Sequence record: NC_041937.1
Length of the DNA: 64,000 nucleotides
Source: Escherichia phage V18
Reading direction: 5' to 3' (one strand)
Shown in pieces: positions 32 through 8,679 of the stretch (its first letter is position 1; each line of letters begins with the position of its first letter). A program made the translations under genes and the position numbers. The notes below the pieces were generated by a model that did not search any database, was not told where the DNA came from, and saw nothing but the letters and a program-made list of their open reading frames with translations.

Positions 32-1064
32 TTACTTCAGTTTCTCTTGCAACCCAGTAACAACCTCTGTCAATTTTTTAACCTGCTCCTCAAGGGCGGT
101 TATTTTATCATCCTGCTCCCTGCAAACCTGGACAAGCAAGCCTGTTACAGCTGCGTAATCCACGCTGTAGAATCTTTCCTCTGTTATCAAAGGAGTTCCA
201 TCTTGATCAGGGTTTGGGATTTCCTTTCTTTGCACGAAAGAGCTAACTGCTTCCGGCAGCGCTTCAAGCACCTCTTGTGCTATAACACCTGCATAAGGCA
301 TACCATTCTCTTTCAAGGTGTAGGTATAACCCTTCATCTTACGGATAGCTTCTAACGCATCAGGAATAACAACTATGTTATCTTTCAGGTCTCTGTCAGA
401 ACTCTGATTGACAGATGTGCAATTCACAGCACCGTTTACAGAAAGATATCTTGATTTATCCGGCAAGGTACCGCAATGCCATACATAAGCTGATTGAGAC
501 TCGTCAAGAACCTTAAACTCTAGCACGTTTGGACGAGTCCCTGCACTGCCGTTGCCCCAATAATGCTGCCATCTGGAAAGCGTAGTTTCCAGAAAATGCC
601 ACAGACAACCCGCCAACAACCATTGAACCTTCAGGTCCGTTGACGTTGCCAGCCAGTATTTTGGATGGGTTGTTAGGCCCAAACTGGTTGTTCCAGTCTG
701 CACCAGTATGACATACAAAACCACCCGGTGCTGAGAAAGTGCCATCTTTGTTGAAGTTGTAGAATCTATGAGCTGTGCCTACAACATCGCGAACGATAAC
801 TTGACCAGCTTCCGGAGTAGATCTGAACTCTGCCTGGCCTTGCAGTCTTGCACCATTACCACATTTAGAGGTAAAGGTGTTGTTGATCAGATCCTCTGTT
901 CCTTCTGATGCAGCTTGGAACCCTGCGTTAGAGAACAGTGCTTTTCTAGTGGTCTGACTACCAGGACAAATGTAGTCAATACCGTCTGCCCAAAGCTCGA
1001 CTTTAGGCATGTTCATTTTGCTCATCACTGCATAGCGTTCAGGAGTCCCCAGGTAGTGCCACAT
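32..1064 (-). CDS. distal tail fibre protein with C-terminal intramolecular chaperone-like domain; reading frame changes near 540-560 (ORFs 513-1064 and 32-745)
   Basis: C-terminal SDRDLKDNIVVIPDALEAIRKMKGY followed by coiled coil resembles the self-cleaving chaperone domain of tail fibres/endosialidases; two overlapping ORFs in different frames. Confidence 0.5.
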
Positions 1065-1163: not shown

Positions 1164-2963
1164 TCACCTCTGTCTGTCCAGCCACCAGTTCTGTAGTGAC
1201 ACTGTAGTGTAGCACAGTTCATTGGGTCCCCCTACAGTCCTGGCACTGGTACCACCACAAGCTATCGGTAGTGGTTCCCATTTGGCTTTCCGGTTGTTAT
1301 AAACACCCCATTCCAAACTGCCGTTACCGGATTCGTCCATCCCGCCATCCCAGATGACCATCTTGGCGGCTTTCTTAGATCCCCAGAAACCTCTTTCTGC
1401 TCCTGAACTGCGGATCCATTCTCCAAGTCCCCAGTTTGCCAGCTGACCGTTCAGATCACCAACCTGCATATATTTAGGACAATCTAAGACCCCATCCTCA
1501 CGGAAGCCTAAATATCTATGAGTTTCAGATCCTTTTGCGCCTTTGTGCAGGTGGATTGTCAACCAAGCCTTATTGTCGTTTCTTACCTCAGAGTAGATCC
1601 TATACCCATGCTCAAGGACACCGTCAGCGCTGTATTTGTCCCCGTTAACAATACCTGATGCTGACTTAACATCAGCAGAACTTTGAGACAGGTAAAGGTG
1701 CCCAAAGGTAGGGGAGTTTCTAGACCCGAGACCGATGTGTGCTCTAAAGGTATCATCGTTACGAGGTCTGACCATCGGCTGCCATGCAGTCCACTGATTT
1801 GTGTTGGCCTGGTAGGTTCTCAAATACCAAACATCTACGTTAGAGAATGGATAGTATTCCTGACGACAACCTGTACCGCCGTTAGCATTGTTCTGCCAAA
1901 CAATCAAGTGACCAGCACCAGAACCTGCAGGGTAACCATTTGCCTCAGTTGCATAGGCAGTCATCGGCTGGTAGTACACACCATCCTGATTACCAGTTAA
2001 GTTATTGATATTGAAATTTGGCTCAAGGGCTGCACGTTGCTTATAGAAAGCCCCCAAGTTAATGCGTGAACCTGCGGCATCCCTGGCACCTGTGCCGCCT
2101 TGCTCTATAGCAAGAGGTTGCCACGAAGCTGTTTGTTGGTTCCACATACCCCAACGGCCTGTTGCATCAAGCTGCAAGTACCCTGCTGTGTTTAAATCAT
2201 CTCCAGCACGGATAACTGTTCTTGTTGGGTTGTTTGCCTCTAGGCGTTTAAATTCATCACGAAGTGCTATTCTTTTTGTTGTTGCTACACCGTTGGTTAC
2301 TGCAATGGTATACATGGCTCCGGTGGTAGCGCCACGGAAAATACCATCAACAGTTGTAGTATCACGACGAGATACCACACCATTCAGAAATTTTTCACCA
2401 GCTGCTACAGAAGGGTAGTTGGTAGTTCTTCCCTCTTCAATAACTGCAGGGCCAACAAAGTTATCAAGGTGAATAACATCGCCTACAGTGTGCACTGTAC
2501 CAAAATCTACACGCTGTGCAAGGGCTTTAGCATCGTTAGCTGTCTGAACAGTAACATCCATTACATCCTGGACAGACTGCCCTTCGGCTGTCATAATCAT
2601 AGATGCGCCAATGGTAGATTCCAGCTCCTCCCTTAAGGACGGATCTGTATATACCATCCATGCAGCGTCAGTAATCCCACCATCGGAGTACGGTGAAGAT
2701 AGTGCAGGGACAGTGTGTGGAAATTCGCCTTTCCAACGCAGGTAGAGGTCTTCCTCTTCGAAGTAGGCAAAATCCATTGGGCCGTTTAACTTACCACCTT
2801 CCTTAAAGGAGATTACATGAGAAACAGTCCCATCCACATGGACAACATCGCCAATTTTTACACGACGAGTCAGGTCTGGTTGTTGAACAACCAGGTAATC
2901 ATCCTCTGTCACTGCGGTAGTGGCAGGAAGAGATTCAATTCTGACAACTTTAATATCAGCCAT
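1164..2963 (-). CDS. tail fibre protein
   Basis: 599 aa; N-terminus DDYLVVQQPDLTRRVKIGDVV shared with ORF 5598-6266; GGTGA(R) ... NLG fibre motifs (QGGTGARDAAGSRINLGA, ACGGTSAR). Confidence 0.7.
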   Translation of the reverse strand: MADIKVVRIESLPATTAVTEDDYLVVQQPDLTRRVKIGDVVHVDGTVSHVISFKEGGKLNGPMDFAYFEEEDLYLRWKGEFPHTVPALSSPYSDGGITDAAWMVYTDPSLREELESTIGASMIMTAEGQSVQDVMDVTVQTANDAKALAQRVDFGTVHTVGDVIHLDNFVGPAVIEEGRTTNYPSVAAGEKFLNGVVSRRDTTTVDGIFRGATTGAMYTIAVTNGVATTKRIALRDEFKRLEANNPTRTVIRAGDDLNTAGYLQLDATGRWGMWNQQTASWQPLAIEQGGTGARDAAGSRINLGAFYKQRAALEPNFNINNLTGNQDGVYYQPMTAYATEANGYPAGSGAGHLIVWQNNANGGTGCRQEYYPFSNVDVWYLRTYQANTNQWTAWQPMVRPRNDDTFRAHIGLGSRNSPTFGHLYLSQSSADVKSASGIVNGDKYSADGVLEHGYRIYSEVRNDNKAWLTIHLHKGAKGSETHRYLGFREDGVLDCPKYMQVGDLNGQLANWGLGEWIRSSGAERGFWGSKKAAKMVIWDGGMDESGNGSLEWGVYNNRKAKWEPLPIACGGTSARTVGGPNELCYTTVSLQNWWLDRQR

Positions 2964-2998
2964 TCTTTCTCCTGAAAGGGGGCAAACAGCCCCCTATG

Positions 2999-5596
2999 TT
3001 AAAGGTACAATCCACGGTATTGAGCATAAAGGCCTAGACCGCGAAGGATTTCGCCAGAGTGATAGCCAACCGGGTCAGAAACTGCCCAGCAGCCGTTTAA
3101 AATATTATCCCCATTAATGAAGTGGTGCTTTTGCAGTAGCTTCACACAGGCTTCCACAACAATATCTATTTGAGGTATTGTCTCTGAATACCCGCAAAGA
3201 CCTAGCCAGCAGCAACCTGCAAGCCATTCACCTACCACCCACATCCTGTCTCCTCTGTCCTGATAAGAATATCCCCCAGAGGTGTTAAAGTCTGTAGGCA
3301 GATTTCCTGAATGAGATGACTGGAATCTGTTGAGGAACCATGCCCATTTCTGGCAGAACAGGAATAGTCTTTCATCAACAGGTTCTTTATGTTTCTTGAG
3401 CTCATATATTGTGCGGCACGCAGCAACAAAAGATCTTGACTGGAGCTTAGAGTTATCTACCATCTCCCACCAACCAGTCAACCCTTCATTACCTCTTTGC
3501 CATACATAACGTGAGGCAACTGGACCCTCTGTCTTAAATGTATTATTATACCAGACTTGAGCGTCATACAGAAAGCCTATTGTATTTGACAATCTATGGC
3601 GATCTATGTTTTCTGCACCCATGCAGTAGACTGCTGGGTATTGCATGCCAGGGTAGGGCCAATTTGGCTTTTCCTCTAAGAGATAGTTTTCCTTATCTAT
3701 CATCTTTCCGGCAGGGAACACACCCGGTGTGTGCCTGTATGCACCTTGCTTGTAGTTTCTGACATAGCAATCTCCAACCTTAGCGGTTGATTCTGTCTTG
3801 CTTGCCATCCATACACTAAACCAGATTAGATAAGCATCCCTATCTGCAATATAGAATTGCGGCAGCGTGTTGACGCAATATAGATCAAACAAGCCATTAC
3901 CTATCTGCCTGTCGCTTAGGCTGAAATCTACAGAGGTGAGCCCCTTAGGATTAGCAAAGAAAGGTTTAATCTCTTCTTCGGTGTGGTGAGGTTGTGTCGG
4001 ATCTAGTTTGAAATCTCCTAGAGTAAGAGTTTCTGTTATCCATTGTCCATTAGTGGCATATAGATCAGCATACCATAACCACCTGTCTTTGTCAAGAAAT
4101 TTGACCCTTACCATCTCATCATCTGATCGATAAGTTACTGAGTTTAAAGAAACCTCTCTTCCAAAATTGAAAGTTACTTTACCTCTTGCTATATTACAAC
4201 GGGTGAAGTTGTCAGAGTGGTTGTAAATGTCGGTATCATACTGCATACTGACACTAGCGCCACCGCTCACGGCAATGTTTTCCTCTTTAGGTAAGAGATA
4301 CGGATTACCGTCTTTACCAACCACCTCTACAAAATCAGTAACCTTGGCAACTGTTTCTGTTACCTCTGCCCCTCCAAAAGGGACACCTATTCTGTACTGT
4401 TTTTTGTTATTGTTACCATCATTAAGGATGAAATGTGGTTGGAACAGAACCCCTTCTCCTCCGAAATTCATAACAATTTCAGCATCTCTGCCTATTTTGT
4501 ATGTAGTCCCTTTTTGGATTATTTCGCAAGGCTGGCGTGCGTTCATTCTAAAATTGATATATCCGTCACTATCCCTACTCATGACAGGTACTGTTCCTGC
4601 AACTAGACAAGTGCCATCTGTGAACGGGGCCTTAATCAACGTGGTCTTTCTGAACAGCTTGTCGTAGGCATTTATATCACTAAAATTAAGCAACTTATTG
4701 TAAGACTGCTTAAACGCGGTGTAATACTTTTCCTCACCTGTCAAGGTATAGAGTTGATAGCAAGCGTCACACCACATCTCTTCCCCGTCTAACTCTGTGG
4801 CTTGATTGTCTGCAACCACATTTATAGGATTTACAATTACAGGGGATCCAGCAGGTATCACCGATCCACCCTGCTCTTGTGGCAATCTCACACAGTAGGT
4901 CACCTTGTGGCTGCCTGTAACACCCTTATCCTGCAGTTGGATTGTGCCGAACTCTGCAGACGTATGACCACTATCGGCTATGCTACCGTTGGCCCAATAG
5001 CGGTTACCATCCCATGCTATATACCACTCAACCCACCAACTTAACCCGGATGTTGTCCAATCTGGGTTAGCATCTGTGCCACCGTAAACATCAGAGTCTA
5101 CAGTGTTTCTTCCTAATACACCGTTATATGCTTGAAATGCCTTGTCCAGGTATTCCCCCCATGTCGGAGATCCAGCTGGGATTTTTCCTCTACCATTGGT
5201 AAAAGATACCACCACATCTTTAAACCCACCATGTGATGGAACCCCATCTGTGGATAGAGGGTAGTGGGACAATCTTTGCATTTTACTTTCTACTGCATAT
5301 GCACCCAAAAGATGACTATTGTAAGCTTCCCAAGCATCTTTTGCCCTATCCAAGTAGAAATCGCTTTTCGATGCCCTGTATGCTTCAATGTACCCCAGAA
5401 TCAACACAGCTTGGGACTCATGCATTGCCCAATCATTATTTATCTTATTACCTGCCCACCCTGCAGCTATAAGACCATCAGGGTTTACTAGCTTATTTTG
5501 TGTGGGAGTGTTGGTAATACCTGTGTTGTTATCGAGGCACTTCCTGTGCCCCTCAATCATCTGAAATACGTTATCAATGTTGTGTTGAATACGCAT
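2999..5596 (-). CDS. putative tailspike / receptor-binding protein with possible polysaccharide-degrading domain
   Basis: 865 aa immediately downstream of a fibre-anchor ORF (stop and start 1 nt apart); N- and C-terminal regions look like alpha/alpha-barrel glycosidase folds; function unverified. Confidence 0.45.
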   Translation of the reverse strand: MRIQHNIDNVFQMIEGHRKCLDNNTGITNTPTQNKLVNPDGLIAAGWAGNKINNDWAMHESQAVLILGYIEAYRASKSDFYLDRAKDAWEAYNSHLLGAYAVESKMQRLSHYPLSTDGVPSHGGFKDVVVSFTNGRGKIPAGSPTWGEYLDKAFQAYNGVLGRNTVDSDVYGGTDANPDWTTSGLSWWVEWYIAWDGNRYWANGSIADSGHTSAEFGTIQLQDKGVTGSHKVTYCVRLPQEQGGSVIPAGSPVIVNPINVVADNQATELDGEEMWCDACYQLYTLTGEEKYYTAFKQSYNKLLNFSDINAYDKLFRKTTLIKAPFTDGTCLVAGTVPVMSRDSDGYINFRMNARQPCEIIQKGTTYKIGRDAEIVMNFGGEGVLFQPHFILNDGNNNKKQYRIGVPFGGAEVTETVAKVTDFVEVVGKDGNPYLLPKEENIAVSGGASVSMQYDTDIYNHSDNFTRCNIARGKVTFNFGREVSLNSVTYRSDDEMVRVKFLDKDRWLWYADLYATNGQWITETLTLGDFKLDPTQPHHTEEEIKPFFANPKGLTSVDFSLSDRQIGNGLFDLYCVNTLPQFYIADRDAYLIWFSVWMASKTESTAKVGDCYVRNYKQGAYRHTPGVFPAGKMIDKENYLLEEKPNWPYPGMQYPAVYCMGAENIDRHRLSNTIGFLYDAQVWYNNTFKTEGPVASRYVWQRGNEGLTGWWEMVDNSKLQSRSFVAACRTIYELKKHKEPVDERLFLFCQKWAWFLNRFQSSHSGNLPTDFNTSGGYSYQDRGDRMWVVGEWLAGCCWLGLCGYSETIPQIDIVVEACVKLLQKHHFINGDNILNGCWAVSDPVGYHSGEILRGLGLYAQYRGLYL

Positions 5597-5597
5597 C

Positions 5598-6266
5598 TTA
5601 GATAGCTCCTGCGATAATCAGTGCCCCGTACCAAGTTAACCCGTTGTCGTAGGTTTCCAACTTGAAAATATCTGTTGCACCAGCTGTAAATGTTAGGATA
5701 GGATCTCTTCCGTAGGACCATTTAACATTATCAGGCCAATAGACTTTGTTGCCGCCAGAGGTCTGAGTAATGCATACGGTTATAGTTCTCGCCACCCCTT
5801 CAAGACCTTCTGCTTGATTTTCAAAAGAGATTGTGGTATTTGAAGTTAGTCGAACCTTAAAGGTATCCGCAACTTCAAGATCCATATCAAGCTGACCACC
5901 GATAGATCCGTAATCAACTATTCTGCCAGAAGAAGTTGCAGCAAGCTCACCAAAAACAGACCAGGCATTTGCAGACACACCCCCAGCACCCTCTACAGTG
6001 GAGTCTGGGAGGATTATTTTAGGATAATCCCCGTTCCACGTGTAGTAGCGCTTAGTCTCTGGGTCATAAGCAAAGTCCTTCTTGCTCTTAAGATAACCAC
6101 CCTCTGTGAAATAGACTATCTTAGTGATACTAAGATCGTTGACAACATCGTCAATCTTAGCCTTTCTTGTCCCATCAGTCTGGTTGACAACCAAGAAGTC
6201 ATCACTCAGGACTGTTTCTGCATCTTCAAGATCTGGAATTGGTATTGTAGGATAAGCTACAGCCAT
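5598..6266 (-). CDS. tail fibre/tailspike N-terminal anchor-domain protein
   Basis: 222 aa; N-terminus DDFLVVNQTDGTRKAKIDDVV ... FTEGGYL ... DFAY is paralogous to the N-terminus of ORF 1164-2963. Confidence 0.55.
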   Translation of the reverse strand: MAVAYPTIPIPDLEDAETVLSDDFLVVNQTDGTRKAKIDDVVNDLSITKIVYFTEGGYLKSKKDFAYDPETKRYYTWNGDYPKIILPDSTVEGAGGVSANAWSVFGELAATSSGRIVDYGSIGGQLDMDLEVADTFKVRLTSNTTISFENQAEGLEGVARTITVCITQTSGGNKVYWPDNVKWSYGRDPILTFTAGATDIFKLETYDNGLTWYGALIIAGAI

Positions 6267-6275
6267 GATTTCTCC

Positions 6276-6992
6276 TTAGTTAACATCAATAGCACGACCA
6301 GACTGGTTGGCAATAGCCTCATCGTTGGAGGTAGCAATAACACCAGAGTATTCGCGCTCATCTGGAGCAAGCGTCCAGGTATTGCGGTTAATGGTTTGTT
6401 CTGCCTCAGTCATCAGCAGATCTTTATCCTGAGTCAACAGAGAGCCTACAGGGATCGGGTTTTCCATCTCAGGACCAGCATACTGGTTCCACCATGTGGC
6501 ATCTCCGGTTCTAGGCAATCTGAAGTTGATCAGATAGTACAGTTTATTAGCCCACTTAATCCAACCCTCATCATCACAAAGAGAGGTTGTCCCAGAATCA
6601 GGTTGTGGGTAGGTGAACTGATCAAGACCTACGAAAGCCAGTCTTACAATCTCGTTCTCTTTGGTAACAACCTCAAAGAACGCTTGGTATGTTCTCGATC
6701 TTCGATCCATGGTGGACTGGAAGTTTATGATGTTTAGCACATCCGGCTCTTGTCTTGCCACTTCCATGATCTTGTTATCAAGAACAGTCTTCATGACCTT
6801 CTTACTGAGAAAGTCCATATAAGGGAAGCCAAACAGCTCGTCGAAGTACCAGCTCCCCTTCCACGTATTAAACCTCATCCACAAGCGCTGGCGCAGACTT
6901 ACCTGGTTTGAATCTATCAACTCAAGACCTTTGTCTATCGCCAAATCGCCTGTCTGTGGGTCCATCAATATATCACTATAAAGCGTAGCCAT
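6276..6992 (-). CDS. putative baseplate protein
   Basis: 238 aa ORF in baseplate block between spike-like gene and fibre genes; position only. Confidence 0.4.
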   Translation of the reverse strand: MATLYSDILMDPQTGDLAIDKGLELIDSNQVSLRQRLWMRFNTWKGSWYFDELFGFPYMDFLSKKVMKTVLDNKIMEVARQEPDVLNIINFQSTMDRRSRTYQAFFEVVTKENEIVRLAFVGLDQFTYPQPDSGTTSLCDDEGWIKWANKLYYLINFRLPRTGDATWWNQYAGPEMENPIPVGSLLTQDKDLLMTEAEQTINRNTWTLAPDEREYSGVIATSNDEAIANQSGRAIDVN

Positions 6993-7004
6993 GAAAGCCC
7001 TCTA

Positions 7005-7682
7005 TTAGTGTGGTCCACTTGTCTCGCCATCAGGGCAAGAGTGGGTATGACCTTTATATTCTGCATAGAATGAATCCAAATCCACACCAGCAGCAGTTAT
7101 AATTCTACCAGATGGGTCTATTGTGGCACCATTCATTCTGATATTTCCATCCACAGCAGCTCGCAAATTGGCAGCCCCATTAGTGAAAGAAAACTCCCCA
7201 CTGCTGTCGCACCGTAATGTCCCACCAGGTGTTTGAAGCTCAAAATCGCCAGAAGGTGTCAGTTTAAAATAAACCCTATCATTCCATAACTCTACGTTAT
7301 CAGGATCGATCTGTAAAGAGTTTGAGTCTGAATGAACAGAGGTGATTGCCCACCCTGGAAACAGGCCGTGAGTTTGTTGATCGTCGTTATTGTTTTCATT
7401 TCTCTCTGAAAACTGCAATCCTACAACATCTCCGGCCTTAATAGGAAGTGTTAACCTTGCCTTTCCGCTGTTTGCAGACATCACCTGAATTGGAACGTCA
7501 TAGATAAGAGGGTATCTCTCCACATCTCCGTCATCAAACGTGGTTTCAGCTATTGGCTGCACGGCTGCAGAAGGAATACTGTAGTCAACACTGACAACTC
7601 TGGCCCTGATGCTGGTGTGGTAGTCCCTCATTATTTTTTCTATAAAGGATCTTACAGCAGCGTCTTTCCTATTTATTGCCAT
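7005..7682 (-). CDS. putative baseplate central spike (gpV-like)
   Basis: 225 aa; beta-rich repeat region and His-rich C-terminal tip (YKGHTHSCPDGETSGPH) typical of spike tips; GAGGAGG RBS upstream. Confidence 0.5.
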   Translation of the reverse strand: MAINRKDAAVRSFIEKIMRDYHTSIRARVVSVDYSIPSAAVQPIAETTFDDGDVERYPLIYDVPIQVMSANSGKARLTLPIKAGDVVGLQFSERNENNNDDQQTHGLFPGWAITSVHSDSNSLQIDPDNVELWNDRVYFKLTPSGDFELQTPGGTLRCDSSGEFSFTNGAANLRAAVDGNIRMNGATIDPSGRIITAAGVDLDSFYAEYKGHTHSCPDGETSGPH

Positions 7683-7685
7683 TAT

Positions 7686-8679
7686 ACCTCCTCAGTTTTG
7701 TCAACAACTCCACCCACTGTTTCCCCAAGGCCAAGCTCTGTAGTGTAATCACCGCCTTCTATGGTGCCCTTATGATGCACCGTGATCACCTTATAGAAGC
7801 CTGTATATTGCTTGCTTTTAAGATAAATAGTGGACTCTGGGAGGATAGCTCCGTTAAGGCATGTGGTTACAGTAAGACCGACATCCTCTCTCGGGTTTTT
7901 CTTTTTCTTACGTGTGCCACCTTTCGCAGCAGCTTTAGCTTTTCGTTTTTTAGCAGGCTCGGGGTTTTTAGGGTGGGAGATCCGTGCATCCCAGACTCTG
8001 CACTTATTTCAAACACAGAGTCCTTGAACCTTTTTCCAACCTTGGTCCAATACAAAGCCCCATCCTGAACGCTAAATGTGGAGTTGGTCAGTCTTGCAAA
8101 CCTGCGGAGGTTCTCTGCAGTGTTTCCAGAGAAAGCCATAGAGTATTGCAAAGTCTGGTTTCCAAAACCAACAACCCTACCTTTTGGCAAGTTCATATCC
8201 TTCAGTAGGTCATTAAGCACAGAGTTCAGAGGTGTGCCTTTCTGATAAGATCTTGTGCTTTGGCACTTAATGATGTTCTCAGTACCATCCCCGAAGATGA
8301 ACTTAGTTTTTCTGGTCGGACCTTCCCATCTGTCTTCAACAAACTCTACAGTTCCGGAGAATATCAACTGGTTCTCATCATCATAGCCAGCTTCAAACAT
8401 AACTGCAAGGGCATCAGCCTGATGCATATCCAGATAGTTAACTGTATCGTCAGACAGGTTGTAAACTGTCACATAACCTTTGTTTGGCTCTTTGGTATTG
8501 TCCTTTTGTATGTCAAACTCTATATTGGCGGCACCAGTGTCTGAGCTAACTTCATAAACTCCGGAATCACTCTCCCCTTTCTTTTCAACAGATTTTGGGA
8601 TATTGGTTTTTGATTTACCGCCATGCTCTACCGGACGACCAAACAATAATCGCCATGTTCTACGTCTGTACTCTGCCAT
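7686..8679 (-). CDS. putative baseplate/tail protein, apparent frame change near 7930-7990
   Basis: 270 aa ORF 7867-8679 ends in an implausible basic tail; another frame stays open to 7686 and encodes a Lys/Ala-rich linker plus C-terminal domain. Confidence 0.4.

Follow-up and report, generated by a model that had tools for sequence, protein, structure and literature searches.

In the 64,000-nucleotide (64-kb) stretch of Escherichia phage V18 DNA that we analysed (NC_041937.1; hereafter the window), two adjoining minus-strand genes, the orthologues of gp43 and gp42 of phage rV5, are best read as encoding a two-polypeptide receptor-binding unit in which gp43 is an adaptor that carries the separately made gp42. 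We hold this reading to be rather probable. It builds on the identity and structure of the genes, an N-terminal anchor that gp43 shares with the neighbouring fibre, the fold class predicted for gp42, the conservation of the pair, and the virion presence and common phenotype of the orthologues in related phages; the contact between gp43 and gp42, catalysis and the substrate are what we infer. The two genes and their junction are the following (ORF, open reading frame).

5598..6266, minus strand: gp43 orthologue, 222 aa, proposed small virion adaptor, 'tail fiber protein' (ORF; full-length match to phrog_7760, E 7e-120; 97-98% nucleotide identity to rV5 gp43 and bas52_0024)
2999..5596, minus strand: gp42 orthologue, 865 aa, anchor-less virion protein with a predicted (alpha/alpha)6 barrel and beta-sandwich inserts
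5594..5610, minus strand: gp43/gp42 junction (AGGAG at 5606-5610 inside the gp43 3' end; TAA at 5598-5600; spacer at 5597; gp42 ATG at 5594-5596)

In the mechanism that we propose, gp43 would be a small modular adaptor in three parts: the anchor peptide at its N-terminus, Tail_spike_N, and at its C-terminus a conserved beta domain of ~110 aa (gp43C). Its Tail_spike_N domain would fix it to the baseplate or the fibre network. gp42, which is synthesised as a separate polypeptide and has no anchor of its own, would most likely dock on the C-terminal domain of gp43 and in this way ride on the virion, and would there bind, and probably cleave or modify, a glycan on the host surface. Together with the gp41-type long fibre, which reuses the same anchor, the pair would form one of several alternative host-specific receptor-binding sets.

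Identity and structure of the gene pair

By nucleotide identity and gene order, the window is Vequintavirus (rV5-like coliphage) DNA, being ~97-98% identical to the published genomes of rV5, RudolfGeigy and MaxBurger and having the same order of genes. A megablast search with positions 2900-6400 matched 118 phage records (117 nearly full length; 90-99% identity), all of which were Vequintavirus (rV5-like) coliphages or records of that type. Because of its synteny and identity with rV5, the 222 aa ORF is the gp43 orthologue and the 865 aa ORF is the gp42 orthologue. In rV5, RudolfGeigy and MaxBurger the pair has gp44, the sheath-initiator gene, on one side and gp41, the long fibre gene, on the other, and nucleotide identity and conserved position both place the two ORFs of the window in the Vequintavirus gp43/gp42 pair. 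No indels relative to phage RudolfGeigy were found in 2999-6266, and both ORFs are intact in the window. The two families form separate PHROGs (protein families). Mass spectrometry of rV5 virions detected gp42 together with gp43 and gp41 (PMC3606486), and the counterpart of the 865 aa protein is thus present in virions.

A six-frame ORF list gave the 222 aa ORF at 5598-6266(-), the 865 aa ORF at 2999-5596(-) and a 599 aa ORF at 1164-2963(-). This list and a direct reading of the junction confirmed the coordinates, and the gap of 1 nt between the gp43 stop codon and the 865 aa ORF, that had been given in a preliminary description of this DNA. The junction reads GCAGGAGCTATC-TAA-G-ATG, with the Shine-Dalgarno motif AGGAG embedded in the last gp43 codons, and the equivalent junction in phi92 gp140/gp141 is AGGAGTGATTTAATG. 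The layout is typical of coupled genes, and gp42 is therefore probably translationally coupled to gp43.

gp43 shares its N-terminal anchor with the gp41-type fibre

Three parts of gp43 were distinguished.

6132..6266, minus strand: N-terminal anchor peptide of gp43, residues ~1-45, common to gp41 and phi92 gp140 (BLASTP against the gp41 N-terminus; motif read directly from the sequences)
5952..6116, minus strand: Tail_spike_N (PF18668) of gp43, residues 51-105 (Pfam E 2e-10, 41 bits)
5601..5939, minus strand: gp43C, C-terminal all-beta domain of ~110 aa, proposed docking platform for gp42 (13 invariant positions across 7 divergent phages with differing adaptor N-termini; always at the extreme C-terminus)

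BLASTP aligned gp43 residues 8-105 with residues 7-105 of the 599 aa ORF, which is a fragment of a gp41-type gene, at 38% identity (E 1e-18). The Pfam profile PF18668 (Tail_spike_N) scored 41 bits in gp43 and 41.9 bits in the gp41 fragment, so that both exceed the gathering cut-off of 25 and belong to the family. In gp42, a Pfam scan (E <= 0.1) found no match, and no N-terminus of the Tail_spike_N type was found. Both claims of the preliminary description on this point, namely that the 222 aa and 599 aa ORFs have an N-terminal anchor in common and that the 865 aa ORF lacks it, are thus borne out. As in an adaptor complex, one partner carries a virion-attachment domain and the other does not.

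The sequence matches of gp43 in the PDB were confined to its N-terminal region and included the CBA120 tailspikes TSP1, TSP3 and TSP4; the gp43 family profile gave no PDB match for the C-terminal domain. In addition, phi92 gp140 (157 aa; locus L093, 6239-6712) consists of the ~45 aa anchor peptide and gp43C, with no Tail_spike_N segment. Because gp140 keeps these residues without Tail_spike_N, the minimal anchor seems to be the first ~45 residues.

Predicted fold and possible activity of gp42

Word-index protein searches with gp42 gave an identical set of 6 proteins whether the single sequence or the alignment served as query, and the alignment for structure prediction was accordingly shallow. 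The AlphaFold2 model built on these 6 sequences (mean pLDDT 62, pTM 0.44) contained about twelve long helices, which come from two N-terminal segments (1-95 and 269-305) and from residues 654-862, the C-terminal third. Between them stand two interrupting beta domains, one at 124-236 and one at 330-613, of which the second was the best-modelled part. The corresponding segments of the window are as follows (CBM, carbohydrate-binding module).

5312..5596, minus strand: gp42 residues 1-95, first predicted barrel helices, including E60 in a TEGQ motif (model helices 2-23, 59-76 and 79-95; E60 in 93% of 68 relatives)
4682..4792, minus strand: gp42 residues 269-305, predicted barrel helix pair, including D270 (model; D270 in 94% of relatives)
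3758..4609, minus strand: gp42 residues 330-613, predicted beta-sandwich (CBM-like), best-modelled part
3011..3637, minus strand: gp42 residues 654-862, predicted C-terminal barrel helices, with Q680 and R721 conserved (model, 616-718 at low confidence; family conservation)

The predicted structure has the (alpha/alpha)6-barrel fold. Furthermore, the gp42 family profile matched a helix-hairpin motif of cellobiose 2-epimerase, over 34 residues only (E 0.0024). A 'six-hairpin' (alpha/alpha)6 barrel with CBM-like beta-sandwich inserts is therefore predicted for gp42 and is supported at the fold level, and to that extent the model and the epimerase match agree with the alpha/alpha-barrel carbohydrate-active fold that had been suggested for the 865 aa ORF. 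The word 'tailspike', which had also been used for the pair, does not fit in its classical sense, as no right-handed parallel beta-helix was predicted in gp42. A Foldseek search of BFVD matched only unannotated phage tail proteins. PMC5380687 (citing Schwarzer 2012) lists the phi92 orthologue, gp141, as a putative 'glycosidase', an entry that goes back to 2012, and the records of the BASEL phage collection annotate 'glycosidase domains'.

Six residues (E60, D270, D502, Q652, Q680 and R721) were conserved in at least 90% of 68 full-length gp42 relatives, and four of them, E60, D270, Q680 and R721, lie at the predicted barrel. Alternatively, gp42 might be a non-catalytic, glycan-binding (lectin-like) or purely structural protein with a degenerate six-hairpin barrel, which is compatible with gp43 as its adaptor. 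We regard this as possible, with the odds against it, since the four residues at the barrel helix ends are conserved family-wide and CBM-like inserts are a typical trait of enzymes that act on glycans.

In the BASEL paper, a Vequintavirus fibre is connected with N4 gp64 (the 'poly-GlcNAc deacetylase' tail fibre). We considered gp42 as an N4 gp64-like fibre that recognises enterobacterial common antigen (ECA) and rejected it, as BLASTP and tblastn were negative for gp42 and for the whole window. The gp64-like domain belongs to a different fibre gene of Vequintavirus that lies outside the window and is annotated in Bas54 as bas54_0034, 'glycosidase and deacetylase domains'. Some long proteins of the gp42 family carry an N4 gp64-like domain at their C-terminus, such as P0039 (residues 1460-1767, E 1e-32), which accounts for the length of PHROG 2871 (1456 positions); another family member, P0021, carries a C-terminal PF23845 TIM-barrel_NCTSP domain (residues 969-1521).

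The two-gene module across phages

gp42-like genes were found by tblastn in 523 phage records from many lineages, and an exhaustive profile search gave 366 representative gp42-like clusters. A gene ending in gp43C lies directly upstream of the gp42-like gene in rV5, PVP-SE1, phi92 (gp140/gp141), Salmonella phage ZCSE2, Erwinia phage Roscha1, Salmonella jumbo phage SPAsTU, Vibrio phage D510 and the Aeromonas T7-like podovirus Atoyac10. In all, the two genes were neighbours in nine lineages examined. In every lineage inspected, the last ~110 residues of the small upstream protein were homologous to those of gp43, and 13 positions were invariant. The adaptor N-terminus differed by lineage: rV5 and PVP-SE1 have Tail_spike_N there, Atoyac10 has the T7 tail-fibre N-domain, phi92 has the ~45 aa anchor peptide alone, and the other lineages have unrelated sequence. 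In Atoyac10 the pair stands in the place of gp17, with internal virion protein D on one side and the holin on the other, and the adaptor (270 aa) is little beyond a tail-attachment domain and gp43C.

The split arrangement, with its own start codon and ribosome-binding site, is kept at 26-37% protein identity. When IMG/VR was searched with gp43C alone, 80 loci were recovered, and the next gene was gp42-like in 31 of them, overlapping or within about 15 nt. In many uncultured phages gp43C forms the extreme C-terminus of its protein, and another gene is nearly always directly next. In most gp42 relatives no more than about 25 residues precede the conserved core, and a minority are fused to lambda M-like, J-like Phage-tail_3 or tail Collar modules. 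The overall co-divergence of gp43C and gp42 in a mirror-tree comparison was strong (r 0.78).

Judged from these sequence comparisons, the gene split is ancient, and the two genes act together as a mobile cassette, because the pair is conserved across lineages, its anchors are swapped and no gp43C fusion in the order adaptor-then-cargo was seen. The preliminary description had also proposed a two-polypeptide unit; the conserved combination of an anchor gene with an anchor-less gene agrees with this, and we infer physical docking.

Two exceptional arrangements were observed. In P0067, a metagenomic protein of 293 aa, the first ~195 residues are gp42-like and are joined to a gp43C-like segment (185-280), the reverse of the usual order. 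In ZCSE2 (locus L005, 3276-6853) the pair lies between neck/tail-completion genes and the tail sheath gene, rather than in a baseplate cluster, and this location hints that the attachment site there is perhaps another one, at the neck or collar.

Phenotypes of the orthologues in Bas54

The orthologues of gp43, gp42 and gp41 in phage Bas54/MaxBurger are bas54_0025, bas54_0026 and bas54_0027, and all three were covered by a HIDEN-SEQ transposon study of this phage (10.1101/2025.11.20.689424), from which the following values are taken. In the reference library on Escherichia coli K-12, bas54_0025 was classed as 'Essential' (7 of 47 TA sites hit), and bas54_0026 (94/189) and bas54_0027 (154/238) as 'Intermediate'. 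During liquid competition on K-12, insertions in 0025, 0026 and 0027 were nearly lost, with mean counts of 0.0, 3.1 and 0.2, respectively. On the clinical isolate CFE311, insertions in the same genes were tolerated (counts of 17.8, 52.1 and 16.6), and the log2 fold changes (log2FC) of CFE311 vs K-12 were +4.2, +3.7 and +3.9 (adjusted p <= 0.003). The neighbouring fibre genes 0028-0031 showed the opposite pattern, with log2FC of -5 to -6.4. Sheet S6 of Extended Data Table 8, labelled K-12 vs CFE303, has a command line and numbers identical to those of sheet S7 (CFE311), and only the CFE311 comparison was used here.

All three genes were depleted on K-12 and tolerated insertions on CFE311; therefore, the gp43, gp42 and gp41 orthologues behave as one host-specific receptor-binding set. 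The Bas54 transposon data also indicate that gp43 is dispensable for virion assembly as such. Insertions in the sheath-initiator orthologue, bas54_0024, were likewise tolerated on CFE311 (log2FC +6.5), an unexpected result given that the gene is a core baseplate gene.

Alternative explanations

A number of observations weigh against gp43 as the adaptor of gp42. Structure prediction for both gave a moderate model with a barrel for gp42, in which residues 616-718 had a pLDDT below 50, and an unusable one for gp43 (pLDDT 41), whose search had returned 4 close relatives only and hence a shallow alignment. gp42 was placed in no curated GH or AGE family, with no Pfam family at E <= 0.1 and no PDB sequence match of the single sequence. 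The Bas54 data for gp43 (0025) rest on few mutants, and polar effects on gp42 and gp41 could account for the more severe phenotype of gp43 insertions. Furthermore, gp43C had no gp42-like neighbour in 49 of the 80 IMG/VR loci and there ended proteins of 123-1767 aa, none of 150 representatives joined gp43C to a gp42-like core in the order adaptor-then-cargo, and co-divergence was weak among divergent pairs (Pearson r 0.29, Spearman 0.17, p 0.05).

Some of these points would suit gp43 and gp42 being independent tail components that are merely adjacent, with gp43 as a short fibre or knob that itself binds a receptor or another fibre through its C-domain, and with gp42 attached elsewhere on the baseplate. 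The many unrelated fibre proteins that end in gp43C with no gp42-like neighbour, the absence of a gp43C-gp42 fusion, the weak co-divergence, and gp43 insertions that are more harmful than gp42 insertions in Bas54 all speak for it. However, the pair moves together into unrelated genome contexts while the adaptor N-terminus swaps, and in Atoyac10 the pair replaces gp17, with no other evident means of attachment for the gp42-like protein. In addition, gp42 has no anchor domain, and the gp43 and gp42 orthologues have the same host-specific phenotype. We consider independent components unlikely.

Far less likely is a gp43 that serves as an assembly chaperone for gp42 and not as a virion adaptor. 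The small size of gp43, its position adjoining gp42 and the probable translational coupling would fit this role, but fibre chaperones are usually encoded downstream of their client. gp43 moreover carries a tail-attachment domain (PF18668; Phage_T7_tail in a relative) and was detected in purified rV5 virions (PMC3606486).

Finally, the pair might be one anchor-plus-enzyme tailspike gene that a frameshift or nonsense mutation has recently cut in two. Such a recent split, which had been offered as an option for this pair and which the 1-nt spacing of the ORFs and the frameshifting indels in other window genes might recall, deserves next to no credence and is rejected, because the same split, with ATG and AGGAG, is present in 118 Vequintavirus records and recurs in phi92, PVP-SE1, ZCSE2, Roscha1, SPAsTU, D510 and Atoyac10, the region has no indels relative to RudolfGeigy, the proteins belong to separate PHROGs and were detected separately in rV5 virions, none of the close-relative records examined has a single fused ORF, and no gp43C-gp42 fusion runs from adaptor to cargo.

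The broken gp41-type gene and other features near the pair

Downstream of gp42 lie a hairpin and the pieces of the gp41-type fibre gene.

2978..2994, minus strand: GC-rich hairpin GGGGGC-TGTTT-GCCCCC followed by TTT, between the gp42 stop codon and the gp41 ribosome-binding site (AGGAG at 2969-2973)
1164..2963, minus strand: N-terminal 599-codon fragment of a gp41-type lateral tail fibre gene, with anchor residues 7-105 at 2649-2945 (phrog_6578 positions 35-536 of 1210)
32..1064, minus strand: out-of-frame gp41-type pieces, 183 aa at 513-1064 and 237 aa at 32-745, the latter with a Peptidase_S74 chaperone domain (phrog_6578 positions 717-869 and 1010-1202; PF13884)

The hairpin at 2978-2994 was not scored as a terminator by a consensus scan, and it may act as an attenuator or RNA stability element. 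A promoter and terminator scan of 2800-7100 gave counts at chance level.

Three ORFs that lie in different frames each match one piece of phrog_6578 (1210 positions). Set against its intact counterpart in VB-EcoM-WM (1270 aa), the gp41-type gene (32-2963) has lost about 467, 234 and 176 bp; the deletions are clean, two of the three shift the frame, and no flanking repeats were found at them. The 599 aa ORF, taken in the preliminary description for a tail fibre, thus carries the anchor as claimed but is an N-terminal fragment of a gene of ~1270 aa and not a complete fibre. Likewise, of the two distinct receptor-binding proteins proposed for one virion, the reuse of the anchor on the gp41 type stands, whereas the gp41-type gene is disrupted in this genome.

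Small indels relative to RudolfGeigy were also seen at 7910-7971, 11560, 13297 and 10045: the baseplate hub gene lacks 7 nt, the tape-measure gene lacks 1 nt and is split into 279 + 499 aa, and two more deletions, one of 1 nt and one of 3 nt, are present. These frameshifts and the deletions in the gp41-type gene may be sequencing or assembly errors or real lesions; for the frameshifts errors are suggested, because they hit essential genes (hub and tape-measure).

Wider reading

gp43C may be a portable 'socket' that closes both adaptors and long fibres in tailed phages, myo- and podophages among others, and onto which separate distal proteins plug, among them gp42-like barrels, collagen-like fibres, beta-propellers and ConA-like lectins. 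We put this forward tentatively, as a minority possibility. In the loci without a gp42-like gene, the genes directly after gp43C include those of collagen-repeat, lactonase-like beta-propeller, ConA-like lectin and Gly-rich proteins, and this distribution fits a general socket role and a generic fibre-end domain equally. If the socket reading were true, phages could exchange receptor-binding heads without altering tail attachment, and phi92 gp140/gp141 could explain part of the unassigned fibre density. In a recent phi92 cryo-EM study, fibre II is unassigned, gp140 is considered a candidate and gp141 is not mentioned.

In rV5- and phi92-like phages, which are candidates for therapy by their broad host range, the genes behind each of several fibres are still unclear (PMC8594841; PMC13450770). 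Treating gp43, gp42 and gp41 as one set would help to assign fibre densities and to guide host-range engineering, and recognising gp43C with a gp42-like gene as a mobile adaptor-cargo cassette would serve the same aims. The pair in the window is an ordinary, near-identical copy of known genes, and the finding reads a known conserved pair correctly; the added value is modest, namely the cassette view of the pair and the link to the Bas54 genetics.

Comparison with known systems

The closest counterparts of the window pair are its orthologues, rV5 gp43/gp42, phi92 gp140/gp141, PVP-SE1 gp50/gp49, bas52_0024/0025 and bas54_0025/0026. Vequintavirus records match it at 97-99% identity, with equal lengths and the same synteny after the sheath-initiator gene. 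The pair itself shows no substantive difference from that of rV5-type records, whereas the downstream gp41-type gene is broken here and the hub and tape-measure genes are frameshifted in the window.

With known six-hairpin enzymes (GH105, GH88, GH76, GH8, GH48 and AGE/cellobiose 2-epimerase) gp42 shares 8-15% identity only, and its predicted barrel differs from theirs in being interrupted by about 500 residues of beta domains.

In adaptor and branched receptor-binding systems, the attachment domain is on one protein and a separately encoded enzyme lacks it (also PMC5380687). G7C gp66/gp63.1, CBA120 TSP1-4, K1-5/SP6 gp37 and KP32-type pairs likewise combine one anchored protein with a separate anchor-less enzyme, and the PF18668 domain of gp43 is named after CBA120 TSP1 and G7C gp66. 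The G7C, CBA120, K1-5 and KP32 systems use trimeric spikes of the beta-helix or SGNH type as partners, and in most cases their anchor protein bears an enzymatic head of its own. In contrast, the window pair has a minimal anchor of 222 aa, and its cargo, which would dock on that anchor, is a predicted (alpha/alpha)6-barrel protein.

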